From Candidatus Gottesmanbacteria bacterium (GTDB lineage Bacteria > Patescibacteriota > Microgenomatia > 2-02-FULL-39-11): a stretch of 64,000 bases of DNA. The stretch is from NCBI GenBank assembly GCA_016186795.1, contig JACPKY010000002.1, forward strand, positions 1,053,892-1,117,891, given 5' to 3'. Within the stretch, counting starts at the first letter, position 1; each line of letters starts with the position of its first letter. Position numbers and translations under genes: made by a program. This document shows, one piece after another, positions 2,634 to 31,455 of this stretch. The notes under the pieces were generated by a model. The model had not been told where the DNA came from. It ran no database searches and saw nothing but the letters and a program-made list of their open reading frames with translations.

Positions 2634-5540
2634 CTATTTATAATTTATTGTTAATTTTGGGGCAAGAGAAGCTGACCCGTCAAAGCTTGTGACAAATTTT
2701 CTACCAAATTTTGCACCGGTACCTTTTAAGATAAGAGATAAATTATTTCCTGAATTCCAATCTGATTTGTTGACTATTTCCTGAATAATTGGAGAGATAT
2801 CGCCAAAACTATACCAGGTATTGGCTGTCCATTTGCTGTTGGAAGAGTGGTTAACTTTTGATTGAGTTAATGCTCTTTGGGAAGGTTTGTTGGTGTTAGT
2901 GAAGATGGGACTGTTGCCGATATTATCTCCTCTGATAGTAAAGCTCATACTTATCCATGGCGAGGTAGGAGAATATACTTCGAATTTGGCAGAGAGTATT
3001 TTGGCGCCTTTGGGTATAGATATATTTTGAAACCTCAATCCTGTATAGCTTGCGGTTGTAGTTGATCCAGTACCTAGCCAAATAGTTTTGAGAGAGGAAG
3101 AGAGAGTATCTCCATCCTGGTTGACGTCATCTGTAGAAGTGCTGACTTTGAATGTGGTGGTTTTGGGAGCGGGACTGGGTGTTGGAGTACGAGTCGGTGT
3201 GGCTGTGGGTTTGGGTGTAGCTGTAGGGAAGGGAGTAGGAGTCAGTGTGGGTGAAGATGATGGAATCGGCGATGGTGACGGAGTTGGTGATGGCGGATAA
3301 TTTTTGAGGGGATCAAAATAAACTAATACACGGCCCCGATTCAGATCTGCTATATATAGGTTATTATTCGAATCAAAGAGAGATGAGTAACCGTGAGAAA
3401 AGAAATCATTCAGACGGATATCAGGTTCCTTGCTAGTAAGAAGTGTGGTAGATGGATTCAGATATATTCCAGAAAATGAATTGGATTCGACAATTCCGCT
3501 ATATCCTACCGCCATACGGTTAGAGGAATCAAAAGCCATCTCATAAGCTCCCACCCTTGGCGATACCAAATCAGCATCGGGTGCAAATAGCGCTGTAGTG
3601 AGGTTTGTAAATTTACTCGCATTGAACTTCAAGATCCTCTTATTACCATGGTATTCAAGCGTATTATCAGCTACCCACACATTCCCTAGGCGATCAATTT
3701 TTACTGCTCCAGCCATGCAGATCGTATCAGCTGCTTGCCCTGATGGATCACCACCCGTGTTATTTCCTGCTATCCGATTACAATCAGTGCCCGTGGGACT
3801 CGTTTGTCCCAACACTACGTCAATGACAGGCGTTGTGAAAGGATTCTGAATTCTCAAAACTCTATTTTTATCTGGTTGTGCTAGCCAGAGGAAATTTCCA
3901 GATGGATCAACATCAATTCCTATGAAATCATTACCATCATAGTTCCAACTCATCGTACCACCACCCAATATAGGGAGTGGAGTCTCAAAACTAATCGCTC
4001 GTTTTAGAGGTTGTGCGCCTATAGAAAGAGGTAGTTGATATACATCGACAGTTCCTTTTCTTAGTACCCATAGATGGTTTTGATTATCTGCAGCGATTCT
4101 TCCCAAAGTCCAGGGATCTACATCCTCAAAAGAATTAACTCCCGCATATCCATCAGCGGGTTTCCCGTTTGTCAGCGATGACAAATCGTCCCAAAATACT
4201 ATTTTAAATCCATCTGAGAGAATAAATTGATTGTTAGCAATTACCATACCCCGGGGTGAGAAAGGACTTTTACTACTTCTCAAGTTATGCCCGTCCGGAG
4301 GATAAAATAATCTGTGGTTAGCAGAATAAATTTGACCAGAAACCGGAGTAGGAATAGGCGCTTCATAGCGATGGACGTCCTGATTAAAGATGGATGATGA
4401 GACAAAAACGTTGCCGTCGCTATCCAAACCGATCGAACCACGACTATCGCACATATTATCCCAGCACTGGCCGTTTTGCGGATTGATACAAACCGTCTGA
4501 TTTACCGAACCGCATTGACCATTTGGTTGGTAGGTATCCTTAAAAAGAACTTTTTTCACGCTACTACCATCAGGACTCCATAACTCAAGCATATTATTGC
4601 CATGATCAGCTACCCAGATACCTTCTCCGTTTGGATCAAATTCAATACCTGCTGGAGTACGCAGTTGCGATCCGAAAGTACTAGAGTAATTCATTCCATT
4701 GGTAAACGGCGGTTGGAATATCGAAATACGATCATTATATTCATCAGCTACATATACCCAACCGTTTTGCCCATCGACCCTCACAACAGCAGGCTCATTC
4801 ATCTGGTTAGGAGAAGATCCGCGGTTACGTGAAGTAAAATTAGGCTGTCCCAAAACCAGATCTGCAGTTTTTGATCCGGCAGGAAACCGTAGGACTCTAT
4901 GATTTGAAGAATCAGCTACCCATATATTTCCTTGCTGATCCACATCGACACCGGCAACAAAGCTCTCCTGATAACTCCCATTTCTTCCCATGCAAAGAGA
5001 CTGATCAGTTGGAGGAGGAATAGGGCCAGTTGCCAGATCTCCATCTGTAAAATTACATTTATTACCAGAAAAATCCACCTGTCCCCAGACATCATCAGCT
5101 ATAGTATCAGTCGTGAATGGATCAATGTATTTTAGTACGCGATTATTGTGGAAATCTGTAACATACAAACTTGAGTTAGAATCAACTGACATGCTTGCAA
5201 ATGACCCACCCTCTAATGGACTATTTTGTACAGAAGGAATTGAACATTGGCTGCTAGCTGATGCCGGTTTTCGTATTGGATAGTTTTCCATATTGCCGTC
5301 CTGATTACAACCTGAGTAGTCCCATCCAGATGGTTGTCCTAAAACAATATCAGCATGCTTATTAGTAGTGAAATTGCAACTCGATCCTGAACAATCAGAG
5401 TGGGTAGTACATTTTGTATCCGGGTTATTAGCACAAACTCCCAACGACAGATAGCCTAATATCCTGCTATTAGCACCATCATAGACATAAACCCTATTGG
5501 GATGTGTATTTCGATCTACAATCACTCCACCTGGATTCAT
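2634..5540 (-). CDS. Secreted NHL-repeat beta-propeller protein with Pro/Thr-rich linker and C-terminal jelly-roll-like domain; true N-terminus probably extends to about 5760
   Basis: Multiple NHL-type repeats (NHRVLRF, NNRVLKY, KNRVLRI, NRGRVLVY). [42 protein letters not shown] linker. The same frame stays open upstream of the listed ATG and encodes a TM or signal-anchor segment (IPFAIFLILLVSIPLTVFV) preceded by AAGGAG, but with no canonical in-frame start. Confidence 0.7.
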   Translation of the reverse strand: MNPGGVIVDRNTHPNRVYVYDGANSRILGYLSLGVCANNPDTKCTTHSDCSGSSCNFTTNKHADIVLGQPSGWDYSGCNQDGNMENYPIRKPASASSQCSIPSVQNSPLEGGSFASMSVDSNSSLYVTDFHNNRVLKYIDPFTTDTIADDVWGQVDFSGNKCNFTDGDLATGPIPPPTDQSLCMGRNGSYQESFVAGVDVDQQGNIWVADSSNHRVLRFPAGSKTADLVLGQPNFTSRNRGSSPNQMNEPAVVRVDGQNGWVYVADEYNDRISIFQPPFTNGMNYSSTFGSQLRTPAGIEFDPNGEGIWVADHGNNMLELWSPDGSSVKKVLFKDTYQPNGQCGSVNQTVCINPQNGQCWDNMCDSRGSIGLDSDGNVFVSSSIFNQDVHRYEAPIPTPVSGQIYSANHRLFYPPDGHNLRSSKSPFSPRGMVIANNQFILSDGFKIVFWDDLSSLTNGKPADGYAGVNSFEDVDPWTLGRIAADNQNHLWVLRKGTVDVYQLPLSIGAQPLKRAISFETPLPILGGGTMSWNYDGNDFIGIDVDPSGNFLWLAQPDKNRVLRIQNPFTTPVIDVVLGQTSPTGTDCNRIAGNNTGGDPSGQAADTICMAGAVKIDRLGNVWVADNTLEYHGNKRILKFNASKFTNLTTALFAPDADLVSPRVGAYEMAFDSSNRMAVGYSGIVESNSFSGIYLNPSTTLLTSKEPDIRLNDFFSHGYSSLFDSNNNLYIADLNRGRVLVYFDPLKNYPPSPTPSPSPIPSSSPTLTPTPFPTATPKPTATPTRTPTPSPAPKTTTFKVSTSTDDVNQDGDTLSSSLKTIWLGTGSTTTASYTGLRFQNISIPKGAKILSAKFEVYSPTSPWISMSFTIRGDNIGNSPIFTNTNKPSQRALTQSKVNHSSNSKWTANTWYSFGDISPIIQEIVNKSDWNSGNNLSLILKGTGAKFGRKFVTSFDGSASLAPKLTINYK

Positions 5541-5893: not shown

Positions 5894-5921
5894 GTTGACA
5901 GACGAAAATTTTCTGGTACAC
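5894..5921 (+). promoter_or_regulatory. Sigma70-like promoter (TTGACA-N16-TACACT) for the serA-serB leader
   Basis: Consensus -35 and an acceptable -10 read directly. Lies about 230 nt upstream of the serA-serB ATG, in a divergent intergenic region. Confidence 0.35.
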
Positions 5922-5924
5922 TCT

Positions 5925-6153
5925 GAGAAAGGAAAACGAAAAACGCTACTATACCGAATTTCCATCGGTAGACCCGCCAGCTGGCGGGGCGTTGTCTTCG
6001 AGAAATCCTTTGAGGAATAAGAAGCACCGGGAATTCCCGTTACAGAATGAATGAGCCCCAATGTACTATCGGGGAAATGTAGGTGGCACCATGGTTCGAC
6101 TTCGCTCACCACAAGCGAGCAAGCAACCGTCCTATAGAAGGGACGGTTTTTTT
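5925..6153 (+). promoter_or_regulatory. Structured 5' leader with T-box-like motif and intrinsic terminator immediately before serA-serB (candidate tRNA-Ser T-box riboswitch or attenuator)
   Basis: Several hairpins are present (TACCGAatttccaTCGGTA, CCCGCCAGCTGGCGGG, CGCTCaccacaaGCGAG). Sequence AAATGTAGGTGGCACCATGG (6075-6094) resembles the T-box consensus AAnnnGGGTGGnACCGCGG, with UGGC able to pair with the GCCA end of tRNA-Ser. Terminator CCGTCCtatagaagGGACGG plus T7 sits at 6127-6153, directly abutting the ATG. Confidence 0.3.
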
Positions 6154-7908
6154 ATGGCAAAAAAATTGAAACTCTTAATAACCGATAAAATTGATACAAC
6201 CAAACTAGATCCGCTTCGAGGGTATTTTGATATTGATACCCGAGTCGGAATCAAGACTGATGAACTACTTCGTGGTATCGCCTCATATCACACGATAATT
6301 ACGCGCTCTTCAACTGCGCTTCCGAAAGAAATTCTCACGAAAGCTGATAATCTCAAAATTATTGGAAGAGCGGGAATTGGCGTTGATAATATCGATATTT
6401 TCGAGGCAACCAAAAAAAGTATTGCAGTTTTGAATGCTCCCAAAGGGAATGCTCGAGTCACTGCTGAACATACAATTGGACTTCTGTTTGCTCTCTTTCG
6501 TCATGTTCCTCAGGCAAACGCTGATTTAAAAAAAGGTATTTGGGGGAAAAGTAAATATGTCGGGACTCAGGTGTATGGGAAAACACTCGGCATTATCGGG
6601 TTTGGAAATGTTGGAAAAGAGGTATACCGTTTGGCTCATGGAATTGGAATGGATGTTGTTGTTTGTGAGCCGTACGTCCGACTTCCGAAACAGGTTCGGA
6701 AAGTTACATTTGAGGAACTTTTGAAAGAGGCAGACATTCTTACGTTTCATGTTCCTCATACCTATCTTACAACCAACATGCTCAACCGGAAGACATTGGA
6801 GTTATGTAAAAAGGGTGTGTATATCATCAACTGCAGCCGAGGCGCGGTTGTTGAGGAAACGGCAATTCTTGAAGGACTAACGTCTGACCATATTGCCGGT
6901 TTTGCGGTTGATGTATTTGTGAAAGAACCAAAGGTGAATAAGAAACTTTTACAGTTTCCAAACGTTATTGCCACACCTCACATTGCCGGATCAACGATTG
7001 AATCACAACGCCTTAGTATCGAAGAGGTAGTGAGTGGAATTATTCACTATCTCAAAGGTCAACCGCCATCCAATCTTCTCAATCCTCAGGTTTTTAAAAA
7101 GCGACTCAAAAGGCGAAAAGGGAGACTTACGTTTGATGCTGTTATTTTTGATTGTGACTCAACACTTTCGGGAGTTGAGGGAATTGATGAACTTGCGCGT
7201 CAGTTGGGGAAAGGGGAGGAAGTTGCAAAACTTACCAAAGCTGCTATGGACGGTACTATGAATTTTGAACAGGTCTATGAAAGACGGTTTTCTCTCGTGC
7301 ACCCATCTCGGGAACATTTACATGACTTAGGAAAGCTCTATATCGAGAAACTTGTTACCGATGCAAAGGGAGTTATTGAAGCACTTACCTTTCTTGGGAA
7401 AGATGTGTACATTGTCAGTGGGGGATTTTCACCGGCACTTCTATCTCTTGGTAAATACTTAGGGATTCCCGAAAAAAATATCTTCGGAAATGACGTTATT
7501 CACGACGAGAATGGGAAGTACATTCGATTTGTTGAAGGGCCGCTTCGGAGAAATCATGGGAAATTACAAATTATTCGTCAGATTCCCGGGAAAAAATTAG
7601 TTGTCGGAGATAGTATCACGGATTTAGAAACGATTGAATACGTCGATCTATTCGTTGGATACGGAGGAGTGACAAGACGTGAGAAGGTAGAACGAGCTGC
7701 TCCAGTGTATGTCTATGCACAGAGTCTTACCCCAATTCTTATTCTTGCGGGCGGATTTGGAGAGTGTGTCAAACTCCTTTCAACAAAATACCGCAAATAT
7801 GTCGGGAAGGGACTCGATCTTCTGATGCACCCAAACCACGTTAAGGTTGAGAAAAACCTTCTGTCAGAGCTTTCTCAATTTAAAGATCTCGCGTACTACA
7901 ATGGGTAA
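6154..7908 (+). CDS. Bifunctional D-3-phosphoglycerate dehydrogenase / phosphoserine phosphatase fusion (SerA N-terminal, SerB-like HAD C-terminal)
   Basis: N-terminal D-isomer 2-hydroxyacid dehydrogenase domain (GIIGFGNVGKEV NAD motif, catalytic region INCSRGAVVEE...TPHIAGST). C-terminal HAD domain with motif I FDCDSTL, EGIDELA...GEEVAKLT...FEQ as in SerB, and motif IV GDSITD. Start taken at the MAKKLKLL ATG (6154) rather than the tracker's 6061, because the upstream part overlaps the leader and terminator. Confidence 0.8.
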   Translation: MAKKLKLLITDKIDTTKLDPLRGYFDIDTRVGIKTDELLRGIASYHTIITRSSTALPKEILTKADNLKIIGRAGIGVDNIDIFEATKKSIAVLNAPKGNARVTAEHTIGLLFALFRHVPQANADLKKGIWGKSKYVGTQVYGKTLGIIGFGNVGKEVYRLAHGIGMDVVVCEPYVRLPKQVRKVTFEELLKEADILTFHVPHTYLTTNMLNRKTLELCKKGVYIINCSRGAVVEETAILEGLTSDHIAGFAVDVFVKEPKVNKKLLQFPNVIATPHIAGSTIESQRLSIEEVVSGIIHYLKGQPPSNLLNPQVFKKRLKRRKGRLTFDAVIFDCDSTLSGVEGIDELARQLGKGEEVAKLTKAAMDGTMNFEQVYERRFSLVHPSREHLHDLGKLYIEKLVTDAKGVIEALTFLGKDVYIVSGGFSPALLSLGKYLGIPEKNIFGNDVIHDENGKYIRFVEGPLRRNHGKLQIIRQIPGKKLVVGDSITDLETIEYVDLFVGYGGVTRREKVERAAPVYVYAQSLTPILILAGGFGECVKLLSTKYRKYVGKGLDLLMHPNHVKVEKNLLSELSQFKDLAYYNG

Positions 7909-9262
7909 AAAAAATTTTCCGATTCGTGCGCTTATAAAAAGGATTGGTGAGAGAAAAATTTCTTTCGATAAAACGGTATTGAGACAGCACTTTCGCGATC
8001 GTTCATTTCATAAAGAACATGTTCCAGATGCGGTAGTGTTTCCGAAGGATTTAAACGATGTCGTCAATATCATTCTGTTTGCAAAAGAATGGAAAATTCC
8101 AGTCACACCTTGGGGAGGAGGATCTGGCCTTGAGGGGAATAGTATTCCAATTCGTGGTGGAATTTCTTTGGATATGACCCGCATGAATAAAATCATCCAT
8201 GTCTATCAGAAAGATTTTCAGGTTCGGGTACAGCCGGGAATTTCAGGCGAAGTACTCAATAGGAAACTGGAAAAGTACAATGTCTGTGTACCAGCTTTTC
8301 CAGGAAGTGCAGATATTGCAACTGTTGGGGGAATGGTAGCAACAAATGCAGGAGGGATGTATACCCTTCAATATGGAGTAGTTGGTGATTGGGTTCTGGA
8401 GCTTACTGTTGTTGATGGGAATGGAAAAGTCATAAAGGTAGGAAGCAGGTCTTTTAAAAGCGTTGCCGGATACGATCTGAAACATCTTTTTATAGGATCT
8501 GAGGGAACGTTGGGAGTTATTTGTGAAATTGTATTCCGGGTAGGTCATATTCCTGATGGGAAAAGAACAGGAATTATTTCCTCGTCATCGGAAAGAAAAC
8601 TTTTCGAACTTGCAGATACTATTCTTGCCAAATTATCCCCTGCCGCACTTGAATTTTTGGATGAGGAGTATGGTCGATTGATAAACACTGTACAGGGAAG
8701 GAAAGTATTTCCCGGACCATCGCTTATCGTTGAATTCCATGGGAGTAAGCTTGAAAGTGAGGAAAAAAATCTTGTCCAACTTTGCAAAAAAGTAGGCGCT
8801 TTGTATCATCCGTGGAAGAATAGAAATAGCCAATCAATCTGGCAGGTACGGAAGAGTGTGAGAATGTCATTGCAAGAGTCGTTCCCTCAAAAAGGAATCA
8901 TGCTTGGTGATGTTGGAATGCCAAGAAGTTTTATTCCTGTGTTTATCAAAAAAATGAAAGCGATAGGGAAGAAAATGGGAGTGAAGACCGCGATTTTTGG
9001 GCATCTCGGGGATGGGAATTTTCATGCCTGGTCATTTTATGATTTAGGAAATGAGAAATCTTTTGATCGTGCAAAACGCTGTAATGAAAAGCTTGTTTCA
9101 TTTGTGATAGCAAATGGCGGGACGTGTACGGCAGAGCATGGAGTTGGTATTGGGAAACGGGAGTTTTTAAAGCTCGAGCATGGAGATACCATGGACGAAT
9201 TTCATAAAGTGAAAAAATTATTTGATCCAATGGGGATTTTAAATCCTGGGAAAGTAATTTAA
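7901..9262 (+). CDS. FAD-linked oxidase of the GlcD / D-lactate dehydrogenase / D-2-hydroxyglutarate dehydrogenase family
   Basis: FAD-binding PCMH domain signature (PWGGGSGLEGNSIP, GGMVATNAGG) and family-typical C-terminal domain (AEHGVGIGKREFL). Start ATG at 7901 overlaps the serA-serB stop (ATGGGTAA). Confidence 0.7.
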   Translation: MGKKNFPIRALIKRIGERKISFDKTVLRQHFRDRSFHKEHVPDAVVFPKDLNDVVNIILFAKEWKIPVTPWGGGSGLEGNSIPIRGGISLDMTRMNKIIHVYQKDFQVRVQPGISGEVLNRKLEKYNVCVPAFPGSADIATVGGMVATNAGGMYTLQYGVVGDWVLELTVVDGNGKVIKVGSRSFKSVAGYDLKHLFIGSEGTLGVICEIVFRVGHIPDGKRTGIISSSSERKLFELADTILAKLSPAALEFLDEEYGRLINTVQGRKVFPGPSLIVEFHGSKLESEEKNLVQLCKKVGALYHPWKNRNSQSIWQVRKSVRMSLQESFPQKGIMLGDVGMPRSFIPVFIKKMKAIGKKMGVKTAIFGHLGDGNFHAWSFYDLGNEKSFDRAKRCNEKLVSFVIANGGTCTAEHGVGIGKREFLKLEHGDTMDEFHKVKKLFDPMGILNPGKVI

Positions 9263-9483
9263 TGTTTCATTTCTTTGCTTGCCCAAAGAAATGAAACAAA
9301 GAAAGGGCACCCTAGTGAACGTTTTCTTGTTTTTCTAACTTCGGGCAGTTCGGTGGATCCTCCCCATTGTATTCGTGGGGTTTCCACACGTTAGCCACTC
9401 AGTAAGAAAAACTACGTAAACGTTCAGAAGGGAAAATTTAGAAATAAGAAGATATTACTTTATAATAAATAAAGGAGGAATAT

Positions 9484-10758
9484 ATGTTAGACATAAAATT
9501 CATCAGGGAAAATCTAGAGAAAGTTAAGACGGCTGCCAAGAATAAAAATAGGGAAGTCGATTTTGAAAAACTATTGGACCTTGACGAAAAACATCGGAGT
9601 CTTACTCAGGAAGTAGAAAAGGTACGAGCAGAGAGAAACGTGATAAGTCAACAGAGAACAGTAAACAGTAAACAGTTAACAGATAACAGTGAGCAGAGAA
9701 CAAAGGGAAGAGAGTTAAAAGAGCAATTGAAGAGATTAGAGGAAGGACAGAAAAAAATTACAGAAGAGCTCAACCTGTTGCTTCTTACAGTTCCCAATGT
9801 TCCCCATGAGAGCGTTCCAGTAGGTAAAGATGCATCGGGAAATAAAGAGGTGGCAAAGTGGGGGAACCTTCCCAAATTTGATTTCCCCCCCAAAGATCAT
9901 ATAACCCTTGCCAAAGATCTTGATCTTGTTGATTTTGATCGAGGGGTGAAAGTTGGTGGGTTCCGTCAATATTTTCTGAAAAACGAAGGTGCCCTTCTTG
10001 AGATGGCAGTATTGACACATGCATATAGAAAAATTGCCAAAAAAGGGTATATTCCGCTTGTCGCACCAAGCATTGTGAAAGAATTCACACTTCTCGGCAA
10101 CGGTCAATTCCCGTGGGGAAGAGAAGAGGTGTACCATCTTGAGAAAGATAATATGTATTTGGCAGGGACAGCTGAGGTTCCGGTGACAGCTTATTTCTCA
10201 GGAGAGGTTTTGGACGAAAGGATTCTTCCCAAAAAATTTGTTGCATTCTCTTCCTGTTTTAGAAGGGAGGCAGGAAGTTACGGGAAGGATACCAAGGGCC
10301 TTTATAGACTTCATCAATTTAATAAAGTCGAGCAAGTTATTGTCACAAACAACGAGGAGAAACAGTCATTGGAATTTCTTGAGGAACTTCGGAAAAATTC
10401 AGAGGAAATTTTGCAGGATTTAGAACTTCCCTATAGGGTACTTCTTATGTGCACAGGAGATATGGGAGAGCCGCAAGTGAAGAAATATGATATCGAAACC
10501 TGGATGCCAAGCCGAAACGCCTATGGGGAAACGATGTCAGATTCGTTCATGGGGGATTTCCAAGCACGGCGTTTAAATATTCGTTATAGGACTGGTAAAA
10601 ATGTGTTACAATTTTGTCATACGCTTAATAATACTGCGATCGCATCTCCCAGAATTCTTATCGCAATTTTTGAAAACTGTCAAAGGGAAGATGGTAGTAT
10701 TACAGTTCCTAAGGTGCTCCAAGATTTTGTAGGAACTGATGTAATCACGAAACGATGA
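9484..10758 (+). CDS. serS: Seryl-tRNA synthetase
   Basis: Characteristic N-terminus MLDIKFIRENLEKV and coiled-coil tRNA-binding arm. Class II motifs (FRRE, GLYRLHQFNKVEQ, motif 3 region). 424 aa. Strong SD AAAGGAGG. Confidence 0.9.
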   Translation: MLDIKFIRENLEKVKTAAKNKNREVDFEKLLDLDEKHRSLTQEVEKVRAERNVISQQRTVNSKQLTDNSEQRTKGRELKEQLKRLEEGQKKITEELNLLLLTVPNVPHESVPVGKDASGNKEVAKWGNLPKFDFPPKDHITLAKDLDLVDFDRGVKVGGFRQYFLKNEGALLEMAVLTHAYRKIAKKGYIPLVAPSIVKEFTLLGNGQFPWGREEVYHLEKDNMYLAGTAEVPVTAYFSGEVLDERILPKKFVAFSSCFRREAGSYGKDTKGLYRLHQFNKVEQVIVTNNEEKQSLEFLEELRKNSEEILQDLELPYRVLLMCTGDMGEPQVKKYDIETWMPSRNAYGETMSDSFMGDFQARRLNIRYRTGKNVLQFCHTLNNTAIASPRILIAIFENCQREDGSITVPKVLQDFVGTDVITKR

Positions 10759-25224: not shown

Positions 25225-25297
25225 GGGCTCGTAGTTCAGCGGGTAGAACATCTCATTTGCAATGAGAAGGTAGGCGGTTCGAGTCCGCCCGAGTCCA
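25225..25297 (+). tRNA. tRNA-Ala (anticodon UGC)
   Basis: Cloverleaf traced by hand. Acceptor GGGCTCG/CGAGTCC with G3:U70, D arm GTTC/GAAC, anticodon loop TTTGCAA (UGC), T arm GGCGG-TTCGAGT-CCGCC, discriminator A. CCA not encoded. Confidence 0.85.
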
Positions 25298-25374
25298 CCT
25301 AGGTATCGGATGAGCAAAGATTACGGGATCCACGAAATTGTAGCTGCTCGTTCTGACTCGCAGACAATTTCGGG

Positions 25375-25414
25375 ACAATGAGAAGGTAGGGAGTTCGAGT
25401 CTCCCACGGTCTAC
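25375..25414 (+). other. tRNA-like 3' half fragment (duplicate of the anticodon-3', variable and T-arm region of tRNA-Ala)
   Basis: CAATGAGAAGGTAGGGAGTTCGAGTCTCCC closely parallels GCAATGAGAAGGTAGGCGGTTCGAGTCCGCC of the upstream tRNA. No matching 5' half was found. Lies in the right arm of an inverted repeat flanking the tRNA. Confidence 0.3.
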
Positions 25415-25904
25415 CCTAACAACCAGAATTAGGAATTGAGAATTAAGAATGAAGAAAAATCTTCTTGATTCATACTTCTTTATTCTTAATTCGAGATGAG
25501 AGCTCTTTAAAAAGTGAACAGGAAAATAATGACGATCCACGCCGCCGTCCTGGCGGAGTGGAGAGGTCCACAACGTAAGAAATCGCATTACGATTTCAAC
25601 GTTGTAGGAACGTGCAAATTGCTATGCAATTTGTTACGTTCCATCTTTACGTCTTAAAGTCTACTCATAAAGTCGACAATGGATGCCTTGGTGGTTTTGG
25701 CCGAGGAAGGACGCATGCATACTTGCGATATCGTCGGGAAGGCAGTCAGCAGCCTTTGATCCGGTGGTTTCCGAATGGGGCAACCCCCCCGACTAAGTCG
25801 GGGAGCCATACAGACAAATCCCGAGCAATCGGGAACATAGCCGTATGGTAGGTAAGCAGGTGAACTGAAACATCTAACTAACCTGAAGAAAAGACATCAA
25901 TAGA

Positions 25905-25936
<32 letters not shown>

Positions 25937-26767
25937 CAGCCTAAACCCTGTCGAAAGACAGGGGGTTGTAGGGCTTCCGATATGGGATGAGATGCAGGTA
26001 GCGGAATTGCTTGGAATAGCAAACCATAGAGCGTGAAAGTCGTGTACGCGAAACCTAAATCTCCTCTAGGGAGTACCTAAGTACTACGGGGCACGGCAAA
26101 ACCCCGTAGGAAGCTGGGACGTCCACGTTCCAAGGCTAAATACCAAAACCAACCGATAGTGAACGAGTACCGTGAGGGAAAGGTGAAAAGCACCCCGGTG
26201 AGGGGAATGAAATAGTACCTGAAATTGTCGACTAACAAACAGTGAGAGTCCCGATTTAATCGGGATGATCACGTGCCTATTGAAGAATGAACCGATGAGT
26301 TGTCGTAACGTTCCAAGTCTAACCAACTTTGTTGGGGAGGCGCAGTGAAAGCGAGCCCTAATTGGGCTATTTAGGAGCGGACGACAGACCCGAAACCGGG
26401 TGAGCTAACCATGGACAGGGTGAGTCCCGAGGAAACTCGGGAGGAGGCCCGAACCCTTCAGAGCTGCAAATCTGTGGGACGATCTGTGGTTAGGGGTAAT
26501 ATGCCTATCGAACCCGGAGATAGCTGGTTCTCCTCGAAATATATTTAGGTATAGCGTCCGTTTATACGATCCTGGGGGTAGAGCACTGAATGGGTTACCA
26601 AGCGTAAGCGAGGCAGCTCAATCAAACTCCGAATACCAGTGACGTTATACGGGCAGTCAGTCCGGCTCGGCTAAGCGAGTCAGGTCGAGTGGGGGAAAAA
26701 CCCAAACTCCCAATTAAGGTCCCTAAATCTTGACTAAGTTGAAAAGGAAGTGAGATTTCTAAAACAC

Positions 26768-26812
<45 letters not shown>

Positions 26813-27653
26813 CAGCTCACTGGACGAGAGGTCTTGCGCCGAAAATGAACGGGGATCAAGTCAAGTGCCGAAATTGGAGGTCTTATCGCAAGATAAGGCA
26901 GTAGAGGAGCGTTCCTATCGCAGTGAAGGTGTGCCGTAAGGCTAGCTGGAGTGATAGGAAGTGCGAATGTCGGTATGAGTAGCGTAATTTCGGTGAAAAT
27001 CCGAAGCGCCGTAAGCCCAAGGTTTCCGTCCCAACGTTGATCGGGGACGGGTAAGTCGGATCTAAGGCAAGTCCCGATTTAATCGGGAGTAGCTCGATGT
27101 AGAAGCCGTTGATATTCGGCTACAATGGAGAAAGGTTTCATAAGGGGAAGACGAAATTGGAGAGACAGATCCCGATTTAATCGGGACTAAGCCATAAGAT
27201 AGTAGTAACTGGAAAATCCGTTATTGCGTTTAATCAAGTGGTGATGGAGAGTCCAAAGAGCAATCTGCGGGCAATTCTGTACCTTTTCAGGTTCCAAGAA
27301 AACTCTCACTATGTTCTGGGGCGCAAGTCTCAGAAAACTTTCTTTATTTCCGTACCGCAAACCGACACAGGTGGGCTGGTAGAGTATACCAAGGCGATCG
27401 GGAGAAAATGGCTCAAGGAACTCGGCAAAACAGCTGGGCGTAACCTATGGGAGATGCCCTGCCTCACGAAAGTGGGGCCACAGCAAAAGACACTTACCAA
27501 CTGTTTAACTAAAACACAGGTCTCTGCAAAGCCGAAAGGCAACGTATAGGGGCTGACGCCTGCCCAGTGCACGTAGGTTAAGAATCATGGGTGACCCCGA
27601 TTTAATCGGGAAAGCTTGAGATTCAAGCCCGTGTGAACGGCAGCAGTAACTAT

Positions 27654-28243
27654 GAAACCGGAAATCCGGAGTTGTAGTTGTAAAATGTGACTATATGCTG
27701 GGACATCCCGTGTATCTGAACATACGAGAAAATATCAAAAATTAAATATCAAATATCAAAAATACATAGTAAAAATCAAATTTTTCGCGTAAAAAATGTT
27801 CAGTGGGGATAATCAGCAGGTAACCGCGCCAAAAATTTCATATTTAGGCGGGGGAATCCTCAGAGACCATAAGTCACATCCTAAATGATTTAGGAATGAT
27901 ATGGTCCGGACTCATGGGCGACCATGAGACTCTGTAAGCAATCAGAGTCCGCCAGTTGGCGGATAACAATTCGAACTGTTCTATGGTGAAACCTGAAAGA
28001 AGGTTCGCTGCCATAGTGAGGTGTAAACCCTCCGTTATGTGCGTATGCCGATACGCGCTAAAACGAAAACTTGACTATATGCTGGAAACACTCGTGTATC
28101 CAACGGTACCGCAATGAGGTAAAAATCTGTTTGGTGGAGTCAATCAGCAGGAAAGATCCCGATTAAATCGGGAAATCCTCAGAGACTATACGTCAGGATT
28201 CGCCTCAAGAGGCGAAATAAGATATAGTCCAAACTTCGAACAT
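27654..28243 (+). mobile_element. ORF-less group I intron insertion at the 23S position equivalent to E. coli U1917 (H69 loop), apparently with two tandem intron cores
   Basis: Insertion splits GTAACTAT | ...AGCGAAATTCC. P/Q/R/S-like elements occur twice: ATGCTGGGACA, AATCAGCAGG, CCTCAGAGACCATA, GATATGGTCC at 27690-27900, then ATGCTGGAAACA, AATCAGCAGG, CCTCAGAGACTATA, AAGATATAGTCC at 28070-28220. IGS GTAGTT can pair with the exon end AACTAT. The 3' end has a P9 hairpin before the exon. Confidence 0.6.
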
Positions 28244-28256
28244 ATCGAAGATTTAG

Positions 28257-28299
<43 letters not shown>

Positions 28300-28374
28300 A
28301 GAATGAGTAAGTGACTGTCTTGAGCCGTTGCCCGGCGAAATTGAAATGGCTGTGAAGATGCGGCCTACTTGCAC

Positions 28375-28405
<31 letters not shown>

Positions 28406-28762
28406 CAACTTGGCATTGAGAAGGCGTTTGAAACTGTCGAGTATAGGAGGGAGTCCCGCAAGGGACACAAGTGGAATACCTCTCTTTTCAAACGTTGACC
28501 CTTATCTCTTGGCCGCACAAATATCCGGCAGGGAGACAGTGTCTGGTGGGCAGTTTCGCTGGGGAGGTGGCCTCCAAAATCGTAACGGAGGCGTACATAA
28601 GGTTGGCTTAACACCAATGGAAACGGTGTTGTACGTGCAAACGCATAAGCCAGCTTCACTGCGAGACCTACAAGTCGAGCAGATGCGAAAGCAGGTGTTA
28701 GTGATCCTCGGATCCGCAGTGGTTGCGGACCGAGCTTAACGGATAAAAGCTACCCCGGGGAT

Positions 28763-29628
28763 ACATTCTGTGTCCCGTCCCGATAGTATATACTAATATC
28801 GGGACTTGGAACGGCTAATAACGGTGGAATCCAAAACTGTGGTAAGTTACGGTCTTTACTTACACGAGGCACAGTTTGGACAATACCGTGGGAAGTTAGG
28901 AAAATGAATAAACATAAACAATCGATTCTGACTGGAATGATTTTAGGAGATGCTTATTTACAGAAGACTGGAAAAAACAACGCGCGTATCCGACTTGAGC
29001 ATAGCGAAAAATCTAGAGATTATCTTCTCTGGAAAGGAGCTTGCTTTCCTGAATATTTTCAGGGAAAACCAAAAAGATACGTACGATTTAATCCGATCTT
29101 TAAAAAAACGTATATCTATCTGAGATGGCAATCATCTGCATCTCCTGAGATAGGCAAATTGCAGCGATTATTTTATATCGATCATAAAAAAATCATTCCC
29201 AAGGATCTCGATGAACTTTTGGTTGATCCAATTTCACTGGCTGTATGGTATCAAGATGATGGTTATTACTATAAACGAGACAAAATGGCTTATATTTATT
29301 TGCCCAGAATTTCTTCAGATGAGTTAAATGTATTGATGCATACACTACAGAAAAATTTTGGAATAAATCCAAGAGTAAAAGTGAAGAAAAGAGGAAATAG
29401 AGTCTTGGTATTTCCGGTTGAAGAGACAAAGAAATTATTTTCTCTCATTGAACCATATATTATACCTTCCATGAGGTATAAAATTTCCTAACCCCGTATC
29501 GACTGAGCATTAAGTTGCGAGGTCCCGATAAAGTATCGGGACAAGATGCCGTCTCCCTCACATACAAGTATGTGAGGGATGAAGATATAGTCAACGCCCC
29601 GATGTAAATCGGGGAAATATTATACGTG
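28763..29628 (+). mobile_element. Group I intron at the 23S position equivalent to E. coli U2449, carrying a LAGLIDADG homing endonuclease ORF
   Basis: Splits GGGGAT | AACAGGCTGAT. Ends with the omega G in ...TATACGTG. S element GAAGATATAGTC is near the 3' end. Several CCCGAT...ATCGGG hairpins are present. Confidence 0.7.
28904..29491 (+). CDS. LAGLIDADG-family homing endonuclease (intron-encoded)
   Basis: 195 aa inside the intron, same strand as the rRNA. LAGLIDADG-like motifs LTGMILGDAYL and AVWYQDDGYYY. Paralogous (about 35-40% identity by eye) to the ORF in the next intron. Confidence 0.7.
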   Translation: MNKHKQSILTGMILGDAYLQKTGKNNARIRLEHSEKSRDYLLWKGACFPEYFQGKPKRYVRFNPIFKKTYIYLRWQSSASPEIGKLQRLFYIDHKKIIPKDLDELLVDPISLAVWYQDDGYYYKRDKMAYIYLPRISSDELNVLMHTLQKNFGINPRVKVKKRGNRVLVFPVEETKKLFSLIEPYIIPSMRYKIS

Positions 29629-29647
29629 AACAGGCTGATCGCGTCCG

Positions 29648-29691
<44 letters not shown>

Positions 29692-29692
29692 T

Positions 29693-30536
29693 CTGCAAAG
29701 TGCAGAGTGGGCCCTTTGCCTAGTAATAGGCAAAAGCAAATTTGGCTCATAACGGTGGAGCCCTCTATATAACTTGATATAATTTATATATGGGTAATAC
29801 CGTAGGAAGTCGAGGAGTTTTAACTAGTAGACAAAGAGAAATTCTCGTTGGAACATTGCTGGGAGATGCGCACTTGGAGAAGAACGGAAGATATACTCGC
29901 TTACGTGTAGATCATTATGATAGACACAAAGAGTATATATTCTGGTTAGTCAATGAGTTTCTACCATTTTCTTTAAAACCTCGTCGAATTATTGAGGTCG
30001 ATAAAAGAAATGGGAAGACTTATACAAGATGGCATTTTTCCACAAAAAGTTTATCAAATTTTGATCCATTCAGAGAACTATTTTACTTTCAGGGAAGGAA
30101 AATTATTCCTTCTAACCTTGATCGTATAATTACACCTTTGTCTCTAGCTATTTGGTATATGGATGATGGATTTAAAAGACAGGATTCTAAAGGTTTCTAT
30201 CTTTGCACATCATCCTTTACGAGTGAAGAACAAAATATCTTGCAAAAATTATTGCATAAGCGCTTCAACCTGGATACCAAGATTCATCATCAACATGAAT
30301 TATCACGAATCTTTGTTCCTTCCGCGTATGCGGATGTATTTAATAATTTGGTTAAGCCATTTGTTCTTCCAATCTTTAGTTATAAACTCCTTTGACCCTC
30401 TAACGACTTCCCAATTTTATTGGGAGATTTTAACTATTTATTAGTTAGGATAATACGCCAAGCCCCCGCAGTCCGCCAGCTGGCGGATCGGGGTGATGGT
30501 ATAGTCTAACCCTTACGGAAACGTGAGATAAGGTTG
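29693..30536 (+). mobile_element. Group I intron near the 23S position equivalent to E. coli 2499-2500, carrying a second LAGLIDADG homing endonuclease ORF
   Basis: Splits GATGTCGGCTC | CATCCTATCCTGGGGCTGAAG. S-like element GATGGTATAGTC and an omega G precede the exon. Shares the GGCT(A/C)ATAACGGTGGA 5' segment with the neighbouring intron. Confidence 0.7.
29790..30395 (+). CDS. LAGLIDADG-family homing endonuclease (intron-encoded)
   Basis: 201 aa. Motifs LVGTLLGDAHL and AIWYMDDGF. Collinear with the ORF at 28904-29491. Confidence 0.7.
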   Translation: MGNTVGSRGVLTSRQREILVGTLLGDAHLEKNGRYTRLRVDHYDRHKEYIFWLVNEFLPFSLKPRRIIEVDKRNGKTYTRWHFSTKSLSNFDPFRELFYFQGRKIIPSNLDRIITPLSLAIWYMDDGFKRQDSKGFYLCTSSFTSEEQNILQKLLHKRFNLDTKIHHQHELSRIFVPSAYADVFNNLVKPFVLPIFSYKLL

Positions 30537-30629
30537 CATCCTATCCTGGGGCTGAAGAAGGTCCCAATGGTCCGGCTGTTCGCCGGTTAAAAGGGTACGC
30601 GAGCTGGGTTCAGAACGTCGTAAGACAGT

Positions 30630-30975
30630 AGACCTTAGTAGTTCGACACTACTATAATGAGCTGTCTTTCCTTCACCGTTTTGAACAATAAGAGAATTGA
30701 AGGAATCCTATAATATAAGTATTATAGGGATAAATTTGGCTAAATGCTGGAAACTCCGAGTATCTTGTGCTACCTTAATTTAATAAGAAAGGTAAAAATG
30801 CAACAAGTGCGGACAATTAGCAGGAAAGATCCCGATTAAATCGGGAAATCCTCAGAGACTATATGCCAGATGATGTACCGTATGGTGCGTCAAAGATATA
30901 GTCCGAACTGCATGGCGACATGCAGACCGTAGCAGAAATGTTTACGGCCACAAAGAAATTGTGAGTAACAAATTG
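30630..30975 (+). mobile_element. ORF-less group I intron at the 23S position equivalent to E. coli 2593
   Basis: Splits GTAAGACAGT | TCGGTCTCTATCC. P (AAATGCTGGAAAC), Q (AATTAGCAGG), R (CCTCAGAGACTATA) and S (AAGATATAGTCC) elements are all present. IGS CTGTCT pairs with the exon AGACAG. Confidence 0.65.
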
Positions 30976-31329
30976 TCGGTCTCTATCCGGTGCAAGCGTT
31001 GGATACTTGAGGGGAGCTCTTGCTAGTACGAGAGGACTGCGAGGGAGGAATCCCTGGTGAGCCAGTTGTTTCCCATTGGGAGCAAAGCTGGGTAGCTACA
31101 TTCCTACGGGATAAGCGCTGAAAGCATCTGAAGCGCCAAGCCCACCCCAAGATAAGGTATCCCTTTAGACCCCTTGTAGAATACAAGGTTGATAGGCGGA
31201 AAGTGTACACACGGCAACGTGCTTAGCTTATCCGTACTAATTGGTCGAGAGTAAATTTTAAGTCGCATAAGATGGAATAATCCTGTTCACTTTTTAGAGA
31301 GCATTTATACTCTAGGCACTTTTTGTACT

Positions 31330-31455
31330 TGAGCCTTTCGGTCTCTGAAGCTGGGTGGAACTACCTCTTTCCATTCCGAACAGAGTCGTCAAATACCCAA
31401 GCGCCGACGATAGTGATCCCGCAAGGGATTGCGAAAATAAGTCGAGGCCGGAGGA
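31330..31455 (+). rRNA. rrf: 5S rRNA
   Basis: Aligns by eye to the bacterial 5S core. GGTGGAACTACCTC..CCATTCCGAACAGAG..AGCGCCGACGATAGTG..GGGATTGCGA corresponds to GGTGGTCCCACCTGACCCCATGCCGAACTCAGAAG..AGCGCCGATGGTAGTG..AGAGTAGGGAACTGCC. The ends are approximate. Confidence 0.65.

Follow-up and report, generated by a model that had tools for sequence, protein, structure and literature searches.

A probable serine-specific T-box riboswitch with a short Stem I upstream of a serA-serB fusion gene in a Gottesmanbacteria genome

Introduction

What does the leader of a fused serA-serB gene respond to in Candidatus Gottesmanbacteria bacterium, an organism of the candidate phyla radiation (CPR)? The gene lies in a 64-kb stretch of DNA (64,000 nucleotides of contig JACPKY010000002.1, assembly GCA_016186795.1; hereafter the window, whose own positions are used below), and the region in front of it (5895-6153; plus strand, as for all features described here unless stated) consists of a conserved promoter, a leader of approximately 225 nt and, immediately before the ATG of the fusion, an intrinsic terminator. 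An earlier note on this DNA had proposed that the leader is a T-box responding to tRNA-Ser. We conclude, with a probability of roughly 0.88, that it is a Ser-specific T-box riboswitch that controls a serA-serB(-oxidase, probably -serS) operon. The proposal is supported by a switch in which two alternative hairpins share one strand, by the UGGC of the T-box bulge and by orthologous leaders that covary, and the data support a description of the element as a Ser T-box of the terminator type that is divergent and has a short Stem I, with a CPR bacterium as its host.

T-boxes have been described as limited to Firmicutes, Actinobacteria, Chloroflexi, Deinococcus-Thermus and a few Deltaproteobacteria (PMC3766115, PMC2494555), and serA T-boxes have been proven in Paenibacillus polymyxa (PMC8002221). 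In TBDB, the short-Stem-I model was run on Actinobacteria, and outside them only on sequences in which the class I model had first detected a T-box with a truncated Stem I (PMC7778990). A full-text literature search for T-box in combination with candidate phyla radiation or Patescibacteria found no paper, so that within the searchable literature no T-box has been reported for a CPR lineage before this one; an earlier description of similar Chloroflexi elements is possible.

Results

Two mutually exclusive hairpins share one strand

The 3' end of the leader can adopt two structures. The intrinsic terminator (6125-6153) is formed by a 9-pair stem (6125-6133 with 6140-6148), a loop (6134-6139) and a run of seven U residues (6147-6153) that directly precedes ATG 6154, in agreement with the textbook terminator touching the ATG that had been described earlier. 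The predicted antiterminator (6079-6135) consists of helix A1 (GUAGG 6079-6083 with CCUAU 6131-6135) and helix A2 (AUGGUU 6091-6096 with AACCGU 6125-6130), between which lies the 7-nt T-box bulge UGGCACC (6084-6090). The T-box-like sequence AAATGTAGGTGGCACCATGG (6075-6094), already singled out ahead of the terminator in the earlier note, does form the A1-bulge-A2 arrangement with 6125-6135, and the UGGC claimed for the variable position of the bulge is located at 6084-6087. Strand 6125-6135, AACCGUCCUAU, serves in both structures, closing the antiterminator as its 3' strand and opening the terminator as its 5' strand, and folding with respect to the shared CCGTCC strand confirmed that the two structures exclude each other.

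Energies calculated for 6075-6153 were -14.4 kcal/mol in the antiterminator state and -20.0 kcal/mol in the terminator state. Since the terminator is more stable and the antiterminator weaker, the default state would be OFF, and a stabilising ligand would be needed to reach the ON state, as is classical for T-boxes. RNA 6075-6139, which corresponds to a nascent transcript that still lacks the 3' strand of the terminator, folds exactly into A1, the bulge, A2 and the hairpin of a 28-nt insert in A2 (6097-6124), with an energy of -16.3 kcal/mol; the insert on its own folds at -6.0 kcal/mol.

Orthologous leaders keep the same anatomy through compensatory changes

Homologues of the fusion protein fall into two groups, one with 51-76% identity, whose named members are Gottesmanbacteria, and one with about 43% identity from Chloroflexota. 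Leaders homologous to that of the window are present at eight loci, seven from close relatives of the window genome (L006, L012, L013, L091, L092, L094 and L095) and one from Chloroflexia (L102), and these were compared with the window, giving the nine leaders to which all counts below refer. A covariance model (R1) that was built from the eight orthologous leaders, leaving the window out, matched the window over its full length at 5937-6138, with 118.2 bits, an E value of 1.9e-33 and every modelled pair standard; this was the only real match in the 64 kb. R1 detected no further family member at the other SerA loci (100 searched). Of 80 loci from a metagenome scan, only L011-L013 were close, and a search of genome contigs with a single protein returned only distant SerA homologues. 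In other Gottesmanbacteria, orthologous serAB genes arranged divergently next to serC (L007-L010, L093, L096) are preceded by gaps of only 85-140 nt that hold no T-box.

Two alignments were analysed, both biased towards structure (one was fitted to the model and the other cut by hand): in the model-fitted alignment of the nine natural sequences, 98.7% of the cells are standard pairs, compensatory changes occur at 17 of 28 pairs and none of 500 shuffles reaches the observed values, and in the fixed-register digest of 100 nt, which includes the pseudoknot described below, 98.5% of the cells are paired and 18 of 29 pairs show compensatory changes. The registers are anchored by the invariant blocks UUCC, CCGGG..CCCG and GUGG.A, and controls in which the partner was slid by 1-3 columns collapse to 40-51% pairing, versus 98.7% in register. 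These alignments replaced a whole-leader MAFFT alignment in which the A2 inserts had caused the 3' strand of the antiterminator to be mis-aligned. A minimum free energy fold of the whole leader was also set aside, as it joins distant segments and does not reproduce the conserved modules.

A1 and A2 are each fully paired in the nine leaders, with compensatory changes at three pairs in each helix (for A1, the variants are GUAGG/CCUAU, UUAGG/CCUAA, AAAAG/CUUUU and UGGGG/CCUCA). The bulge reads UGGC in eight leaders and UGGU in the remaining one; the discriminator of bacterial tRNA-Ser is G73, complementary to the C of UGGC. An insert similar to that of the window, of 24 nt, occurs in A2 of L094, and in the other seven a loop of 3-7 nt stands at this site. 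The comparison of leaders upstream of related serA genes, which the earlier note had suggested as a check, thus provided eight orthologues with the same anatomy and with compensatory changes, and at the level of sequence we consider this evidence decisive for the presence of an element beyond chance.

Promoter and terminator are also retained. The promoter that had been claimed in front of the leader is of the sigma-70 type (5895-5922), with a -35 element TTGACA (5895-5900), a 16-nt spacer and an extended -10 element TGgTACACT (5914-5922), whose hexamer TACACT (5917-5922) is preceded by TG, and it matches the consensus at 10 of 12 positions. TTGACA is unchanged in all nine leaders, and TGn with the -10 hexamer is present in eight. 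Transcription is inferred to start near 5929, which would place an A-rich and apparently unpaired tail (5929-5941), for which the alignments show no conserved pairing partner, at the 5' end of the RNA. The earlier note had described a hairpin-rich leader of 230 nt; the leader of about 225 nt folds better than shuffled sequences (z = -2.4). The terminator hairpin and its U-run are retained in 9/9 leaders, including L095 and L102, in which the start codon is located about 100-200 nt beyond the terminator.

A short Stem I presents a UCC triplet in an apical loop

Stem I (5942-5993) is short, its basal helix P1 (5942-5946 with 5989-5993) enclosing the specifier hairpin and one variable hairpin; P1 is 100% paired over the leaders and carries compensatory changes at three pairs. 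The specifier hairpin (5952-5970) is made of a 6-bp stem, UACCGA 5952-5957 with UCGGUA 5965-5970, and of the apical loop AUUUCCA (5958-5964). The stem is likewise 100% paired, with compensatory changes at five of its six pairs (UACCGA/UCGGUA, UGCCGG/CCGGCA, UAUCAG/CUGAUA and CUCCGA/UCGGAG), and UUCC is unchanged in the loop of all nine leaders, where the last six bases read UUUCCA, UUUCCC, UUUCCG, AUUCCA or AUUCCC (in L094, these six make up the whole loop). The only invariant triplets at a fixed unpaired position of Stem I are those in this loop, and conservation and context together point to UCC (Ser) at 5961-5963, followed by A5964, as the specifier. This codon matches the regulated genes, since the operon encodes SerA-SerB and SerS, and its third base is a C, in line with the 'C rule' according to which T-box specifiers end in C (PMC7583486).

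The variable second hairpin (5973-5988; CCCGCC-AGCU-GGCGGG) is present in six of the nine leaders with unrelated sequences, turning Stem I into a three-way junction in these members, and is absent from L013, L095 and L102. As it has no conserved loop motif, we do not regard it as a tRNA elbow-binding platform.

Stem I is followed by Stem II (5996-6024), which has a lower helix (CUUC 5996-5999 with GAAG 6021-6024) with compensatory changes at three of four pairs and an apical helix (UCC 6006-6008 with GGA 6014-6016). Its internal loop is purine-rich (GAGAAA and AAUAA in the window, with GARA and UAA conserved) and approximates the S-turn sequence AGUA/GAA. A reading in which AAGG (5930-5933)/UCUU and UGAGAA/CGAG would form an Rfam-style kink-turn (K-turn) base of Stem I was rejected: it is absent from most homologues and lies partly 5' of the inferred start site, and AAGG/UCUU is displaced by the pairing of CUUC 5996-5999 with GAAG 6021-6024, which covaries.

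The predicted Stem IIA/B pseudoknot and F-box (6028-6048) comprise an invariant helix IIA (CGG 6028-6030 with CCG 6037-6039), an exact F-box CCGUUA (6037-6042) and helix IIB (AUUC 6033-6036 with GAAU 6045-6048), which is 94% paired and shows compensatory changes at two of four pairs (AUUC/GAAU, GUUC/GAAC, GAUC/GAUU in L013 and UACUC/GAGUA in L012). Stem III (6056-6074; CCCC 6056-6059 with GGGG 6071-6074, with GAG on its 5' side and AAA on its 3' side) is present in 9/9 leaders with differing sequences, such as UACCGAU/AUCGGUA in L092 and GGGUUAUG/CAUAACC in L012.

Could a different triplet act as the specifier? The UCC that the earlier note had placed in a potential loop at 6005-6012 does exist, at 6006-6008, and is a Ser codon; it is neither in a loop nor conserved, being the 5' strand of the Stem II apical helix, in a part of Stem II that is variable (CUCUAAAA in L094, different in L012 and missing in L092). 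The other possibility is UUC (Phe) at 5960-5962, which shares the apical loop with the UCC at 5961-5963, is equally invariant and also ends in C. It implies a tRNA-Phe, whose discriminator is A73, yet eight of the nine leaders have UGGC, which calls for G73, and UUC is disfavoured for this reason; in addition, all regulated genes are serine genes. We thus consider a T-box with either of these specifiers highly improbable, and retain UCC 5961-5963 as the probable specifier.

Comparison with the Rfam T-box model

The Rfam search that the earlier note had recommended gave a borderline result. A scan of the window at gathering thresholds detected no T-box. At permissive thresholds, RF00230 produced a full-length match at 5916-6115 with 24 bits, versus a gathering score of 93, and with an E value of 0.0027 over 601 nt and 0.29 over the whole 64 kb; taken alone, this match is not significant. 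The alignment to the window drops about 58 nt of the model's Stem I, in its distal part (58-72 nt when the orthologous leaders are included), and RF00230 cannot span the 28-nt A2 insert, so that the T-box is paired with a wrong partner. The low score is explained by the truncated Stem I and the mis-aligned insert, and not by the element being something other than a T-box. The same model matches all eight orthologous leaders over their full length with 29-54 bits, again below the gathering score, and here the E values are as low as 3.7e-9 (in a 56-kb search) and, for L102 with 49 bits, 1.1e-9. With 24-54 bits against a threshold of 93, the family is invisible to routine RNA annotation.

Several observations weigh against the assignment as a Ser T-box. 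Besides the RF00230 score in the window, far under its gathering value, and the E value of 0.29 at the scale of the window, Stem I lacks the tRNA-elbow platform formed by an AG bulge and a distal loop, which transcriptional T-boxes are generally said to need (PMC7583486); the combination of a platform-less short Stem I with a terminator has been treated as disfavoured (PMC7583486). The K-turn, thought likely to be required in T-boxes that contain a Stem II (PMC7583486), is not conserved, with the 5' GA in 2/9 leaders (otherwise UA, AA, CA, UU or GC) and the 3' GA in 7/9 (otherwise AA); at the base of the specifier hairpin, either a K-turn in degenerate form or a k-junction is conceivable. The purine that canonical T-boxes keep after the specifier codon is present in only five of the nine leaders. 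Lastly, a search for tRNA-Ser genes in the window and 16 fetched loci found none, and an anticodon GGA and G73 are assumed.

The sub-threshold Rfam match would also fit a leader that senses no tRNA at all, that is, an attenuator of another kind (protein-dependent, for instance) or a plain terminator that resembles a T-box by chance. Such a leader would have to account for six T-box modules that follow one another in canonical order (Stem II, the pseudoknot with F-box, Stem III, A1, the UGGNACC bulge and A2) and that are kept via compensatory changes among proteins only 43-76% identical. The hairpin has nothing else to terminate: the upstream neighbour (2634-5540) is on the minus strand and oriented away from the leader, which excludes the terminator of a divergent transcript that the earlier note had named as the alternative. 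We give an explanation without a tRNA sensor practically no weight, and the Ser T-box remains the preferred interpretation.

A proposed mechanism, and control of translation

In the mechanism that we propose, transcription would start near 5929, and the short Stem I would offer UCC 5961-5963, in its apical loop, to the anticodon GGA of tRNA-Ser. Stem II and the IIA/B pseudoknot would then clamp the codon-anticodon duplex, by analogy with short-Stem-I T-boxes, and the RNA would have to function without elbow contact, as its modelled architecture suggests. With uncharged tRNA-Ser, the 3' end GCCA would pair with UGGC 6084-6087 and stabilise A1 and A2; the antiterminator would hold strand 6125-6135 away from the terminator, allowing polymerase to enter serAB and leaving the Shine-Dalgarno (SD)-like sequence GAAGGGA single-stranded. 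With charged tRNA-Ser, the stabler terminator (6125-6148 with U7) would form and transcription would end one base short of the ATG; should a full-length RNA be made in this state, its SD-like stretch would be paired. Both tRNA binding and the identity of the tRNA are deduced from sequence features.

GAAGGGA (6137-6143) is the only purine-rich stretch before the ATG, and the terminator holds it in its loop and 3' strand. At least seven of the nine leaders share this arrangement (the stretch is AAGGAGGAGG in L092, for instance, and AGAGGG in both L094 and L012), and at least seven have the U-run next to, or almost next to, the start codon. The same hairpin may thus also mask the SD in full-length RNA, so that translation would be gated too.

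These features raise the question of whether the T-box acts on translation only, through SD sequestration, with the hairpin and U-run serving as a sequestrator and as an inefficient terminator. A short Stem I, an apical specifier and an A2 insert are typical of translational T-boxes, with which A2 inserts have been associated (PMC7583486), and with the sole SD-like sequence in the 3' half of the hairpin, the U-run would be the spacer between SD and ATG in at least 7/9 leaders. A G+C-rich stem of 9 bp followed by U7 is nevertheless a textbook intrinsic terminator, and the hairpin and U-run are kept in L095 and L102, where they cannot sequester a distant SD. Control of translation alone is in our view unlikely, if less so than a different specifier, and a T-box that terminates transcription remains the favoured interpretation.

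The regulated genes

The fusion gene (6154-7908) encodes a protein of 584 aa with 2-Hacid_dh, 2-Hacid_dh_C and Hydrolase/HAD domains, and these matches identify its product as a D-3-phosphoglycerate dehydrogenase (SerA-like) joined to a HAD phosphoserine phosphatase (SerB-like). Comparison of homologues revealed a conserved N-terminus of the fusion protein, MxKxKLLITDKID, that fits a start at ATG 6154. We note that the public gene calls are too long, extending beyond this N-terminus to 605 aa in the window (P0001) and 599 aa in L006 (P0002); the public call in the window must begin at ATG 6091, within the T-box (ACC-AUG-G), 21 codons 5' of 6154. By extending the serAB open reading frame, gene callers have concealed the riboswitch inside coding sequence.

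The next gene after serAB encodes an FAD-linked oxidase (7847-9262; FAD_binding_4 and FAD-oxidase_C), and is followed by serS, for seryl-tRNA synthetase (9484-10758). The SerS protein of the window is 100% identical to a Candidatus Gottesmanbacteria protein at NCBI, in keeping with a CPR (Microgenomates) host. The order serAB-(oxidase)-serS also occurs in L006, L092, L094 and L095, so that serS accompanies serAB at five of the nine T-box loci, the window included; in L091, serAB and the oxidase are followed by a gene that is truncated by the contig end and has no family on record, and in the Chloroflexia locus L102 it is serC that accompanies serAB. L094 resembles the window in having the oxidase placed between serAB and serS, and an oxidase similar to GlcD or D-2-hydroxyglutarate dehydrogenase lies directly 3' of serAB in L091, L094 and L097 as well. 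A 2-oxoglutarate reductase side reaction of SerA is reportedly coupled to D-2-hydroxyglutarate dehydrogenase, and the position of the oxidase fits this coupling.

Co-transcription of serS with serAB in the window genome is likely from the arrangement of the genes. Prediction of intrinsic terminators in 7800-9484 gave none, and in L006 and L094 serS starts 13-30 nt after the preceding gene. The gap before serS holds a promoter-like site (9437-9466; TTTAGA, 18 nt, TATAAT), and a T-box search of this gap (9263-9483) found none; serS in the window may be served by a promoter of its own besides read-through from the T-box. A perfect long inverted repeat, GUUUCAUUUCUUUG ... CAAAGAAAUGAAAC, lacking a U-run, lies directly after the oxidase stop codon (9263-9300).

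Distribution of the fusion and its leader

Full-length SerA-SerB proteins (dehydrogenase plus HAD) at about 40% identity or more were found, among the matches listed, only in the Gottesmanbacteria and Chloroflexia groups, and in L102 (Chloroflexia), as in Gottesmanbacteria, this rare fusion gene has the same T-box variant in front of it. From this distribution, the fusion gene and its leader may reasonably be supposed to have been transferred laterally together. In L102 (2840-2990), the T-box terminator is separated from the serAB start by about 170 nt, and this spacer is built from tandem GACGATGGAC/GACGATAGAC repeats with, after them, the reverse complement of these repeats; the resulting long imperfect palindrome appears in Rfam as spurious miRNA-like matches.

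In sister Gottesmanbacteria, two serAB loci lack the T-box, L097 (identical to L011 and L098; 2852-2985) and L099 (identical to L100; 193-331), with operons of the form serAB-serC-serS or serAB-oxidase. The place of the T-box is taken by a small open reading frame (MNSRTDVLNNYSPQSSSGISEGEVGV in L097, MNTRTDVCNNYSPQSSSTKK in L099) that is conserved and has a serine run (MN[ST]RTDV[LC]NNYSPQSSS...), together with four segments, CUCCCC, GGGGAGG, CCUCCCC and GGGAGG, the last with a U-run. In folding calculations, the free RNA pairs segments 1:2 and 3:4, the latter being a terminator, and masking of segment 1 and the Ser codons, in imitation of a stalled ribosome, gives the 2:3 antiterminator. On this modelling, the leader looks like a ribosome-mediated serine leader-peptide attenuator. 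To our knowledge, no serine leader-peptide attenuator has been described. If these assignments are true, two unrelated serine-sensing RNA mechanisms would have been swapped at one locus.

Elsewhere in the window, the rRNA locus (25225-31453) contains tRNA-Ala, 23S and 5S genes, in that order, and the 25 kb upstream contain no 16S. Two group I introns, at 28035-28250 and 30673-30925, exceed the Rfam threshold, three matches at 27644, 29440 and 30403 are weaker, and open reading frames at 28904-29491 and 29790-30395 lie among these intron matches. The 23S match ends at 28861 and intron-like matches run on to 30925; as judged from the sequence, the 3' part of the 23S gene is probably split by large insertions.

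Discussion

The leader of the serA-serB fusion raises the possibility of a T-box lineage in Gottesmanbacteria and Chloroflexia that terminates transcription without an elbow platform or a conserved K-turn, relying on the codon and on a clamp formed by Stem II and the pseudoknot, and that gates translation too. We put this forward tentatively, with slightly less than even confidence. If true, it would contradict the generalisation that transcriptional T-boxes need a long Stem I for fast tRNA capture, and it would mean that tRNA-sensing riboswitches are at work in reduced CPR genomes; the family offers a natural test case for how far elbow contact and the K-turn are needed. We propose that this CPR bacterium, whose genome measures about 1.1 Mb, retains de novo serine synthesis regulated by the charging of tRNA-Ser.

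How does the element compare with known T-boxes? With the canonical transcriptional T-boxes (RF00230; B. subtilis tyrS and glyQS), it shares the UGGNACC bulge between A1 and A2, the competing terminator, Stem II, the IIA/B pseudoknot with F-box CCGUUA, Stem III and a specifier that ends in C, and as in these systems the controlled genes are for amino-acid biosynthesis and an aminoacyl-tRNA synthetase. Unlike them, it has no distal AG bulge and loop, no side-bulge Specifier Loop and no conserved GA/K-turn, it lacks about 60-70 nt that the Rfam model has in Stem I, and its host belongs to the CPR.

In its apical-loop specifier, short Stem I and absence of an elbow platform, as well as in its Stem II domain with pseudoknot, its A2 insertions and the presence of the SD in a strand of the OFF hairpin, the element is reminiscent of the ileS T-boxes of Actinobacteria (M. 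tuberculosis, N. farcinica), in which apical-loop specifiers on a short Stem I are already known (PMC7583486). It differs from these in being directed to Ser (UCC/UGGC) and not Ile, in having a terminator made of a hairpin and U7 instead of a sequestrator alone, in the extra Stem I hairpin of 6/9 members and in the lack of conservation of the K-turn, which is essential in the ileS RNAs; its hosts are Gottesmanbacteria and Chloroflexia, and its genes are serAB and serS.

A further parallel is the serA T-box of Paenibacillus polymyxa (PMC8002221), which is likewise of the tRNA-Ser antitermination type, lies before serA and has seven U residues after its terminator. That element differs in that its Stem I is long and carries an AG bulge and a distal loop, and also in its side-bulge specifier AGC, its T-box bulge UGGU and its lack of Stem IIA/B. 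Ser T-boxes with a UCC specifier, as proposed here for the Gottesmanbacteria leader, have also been predicted in Clostridium.

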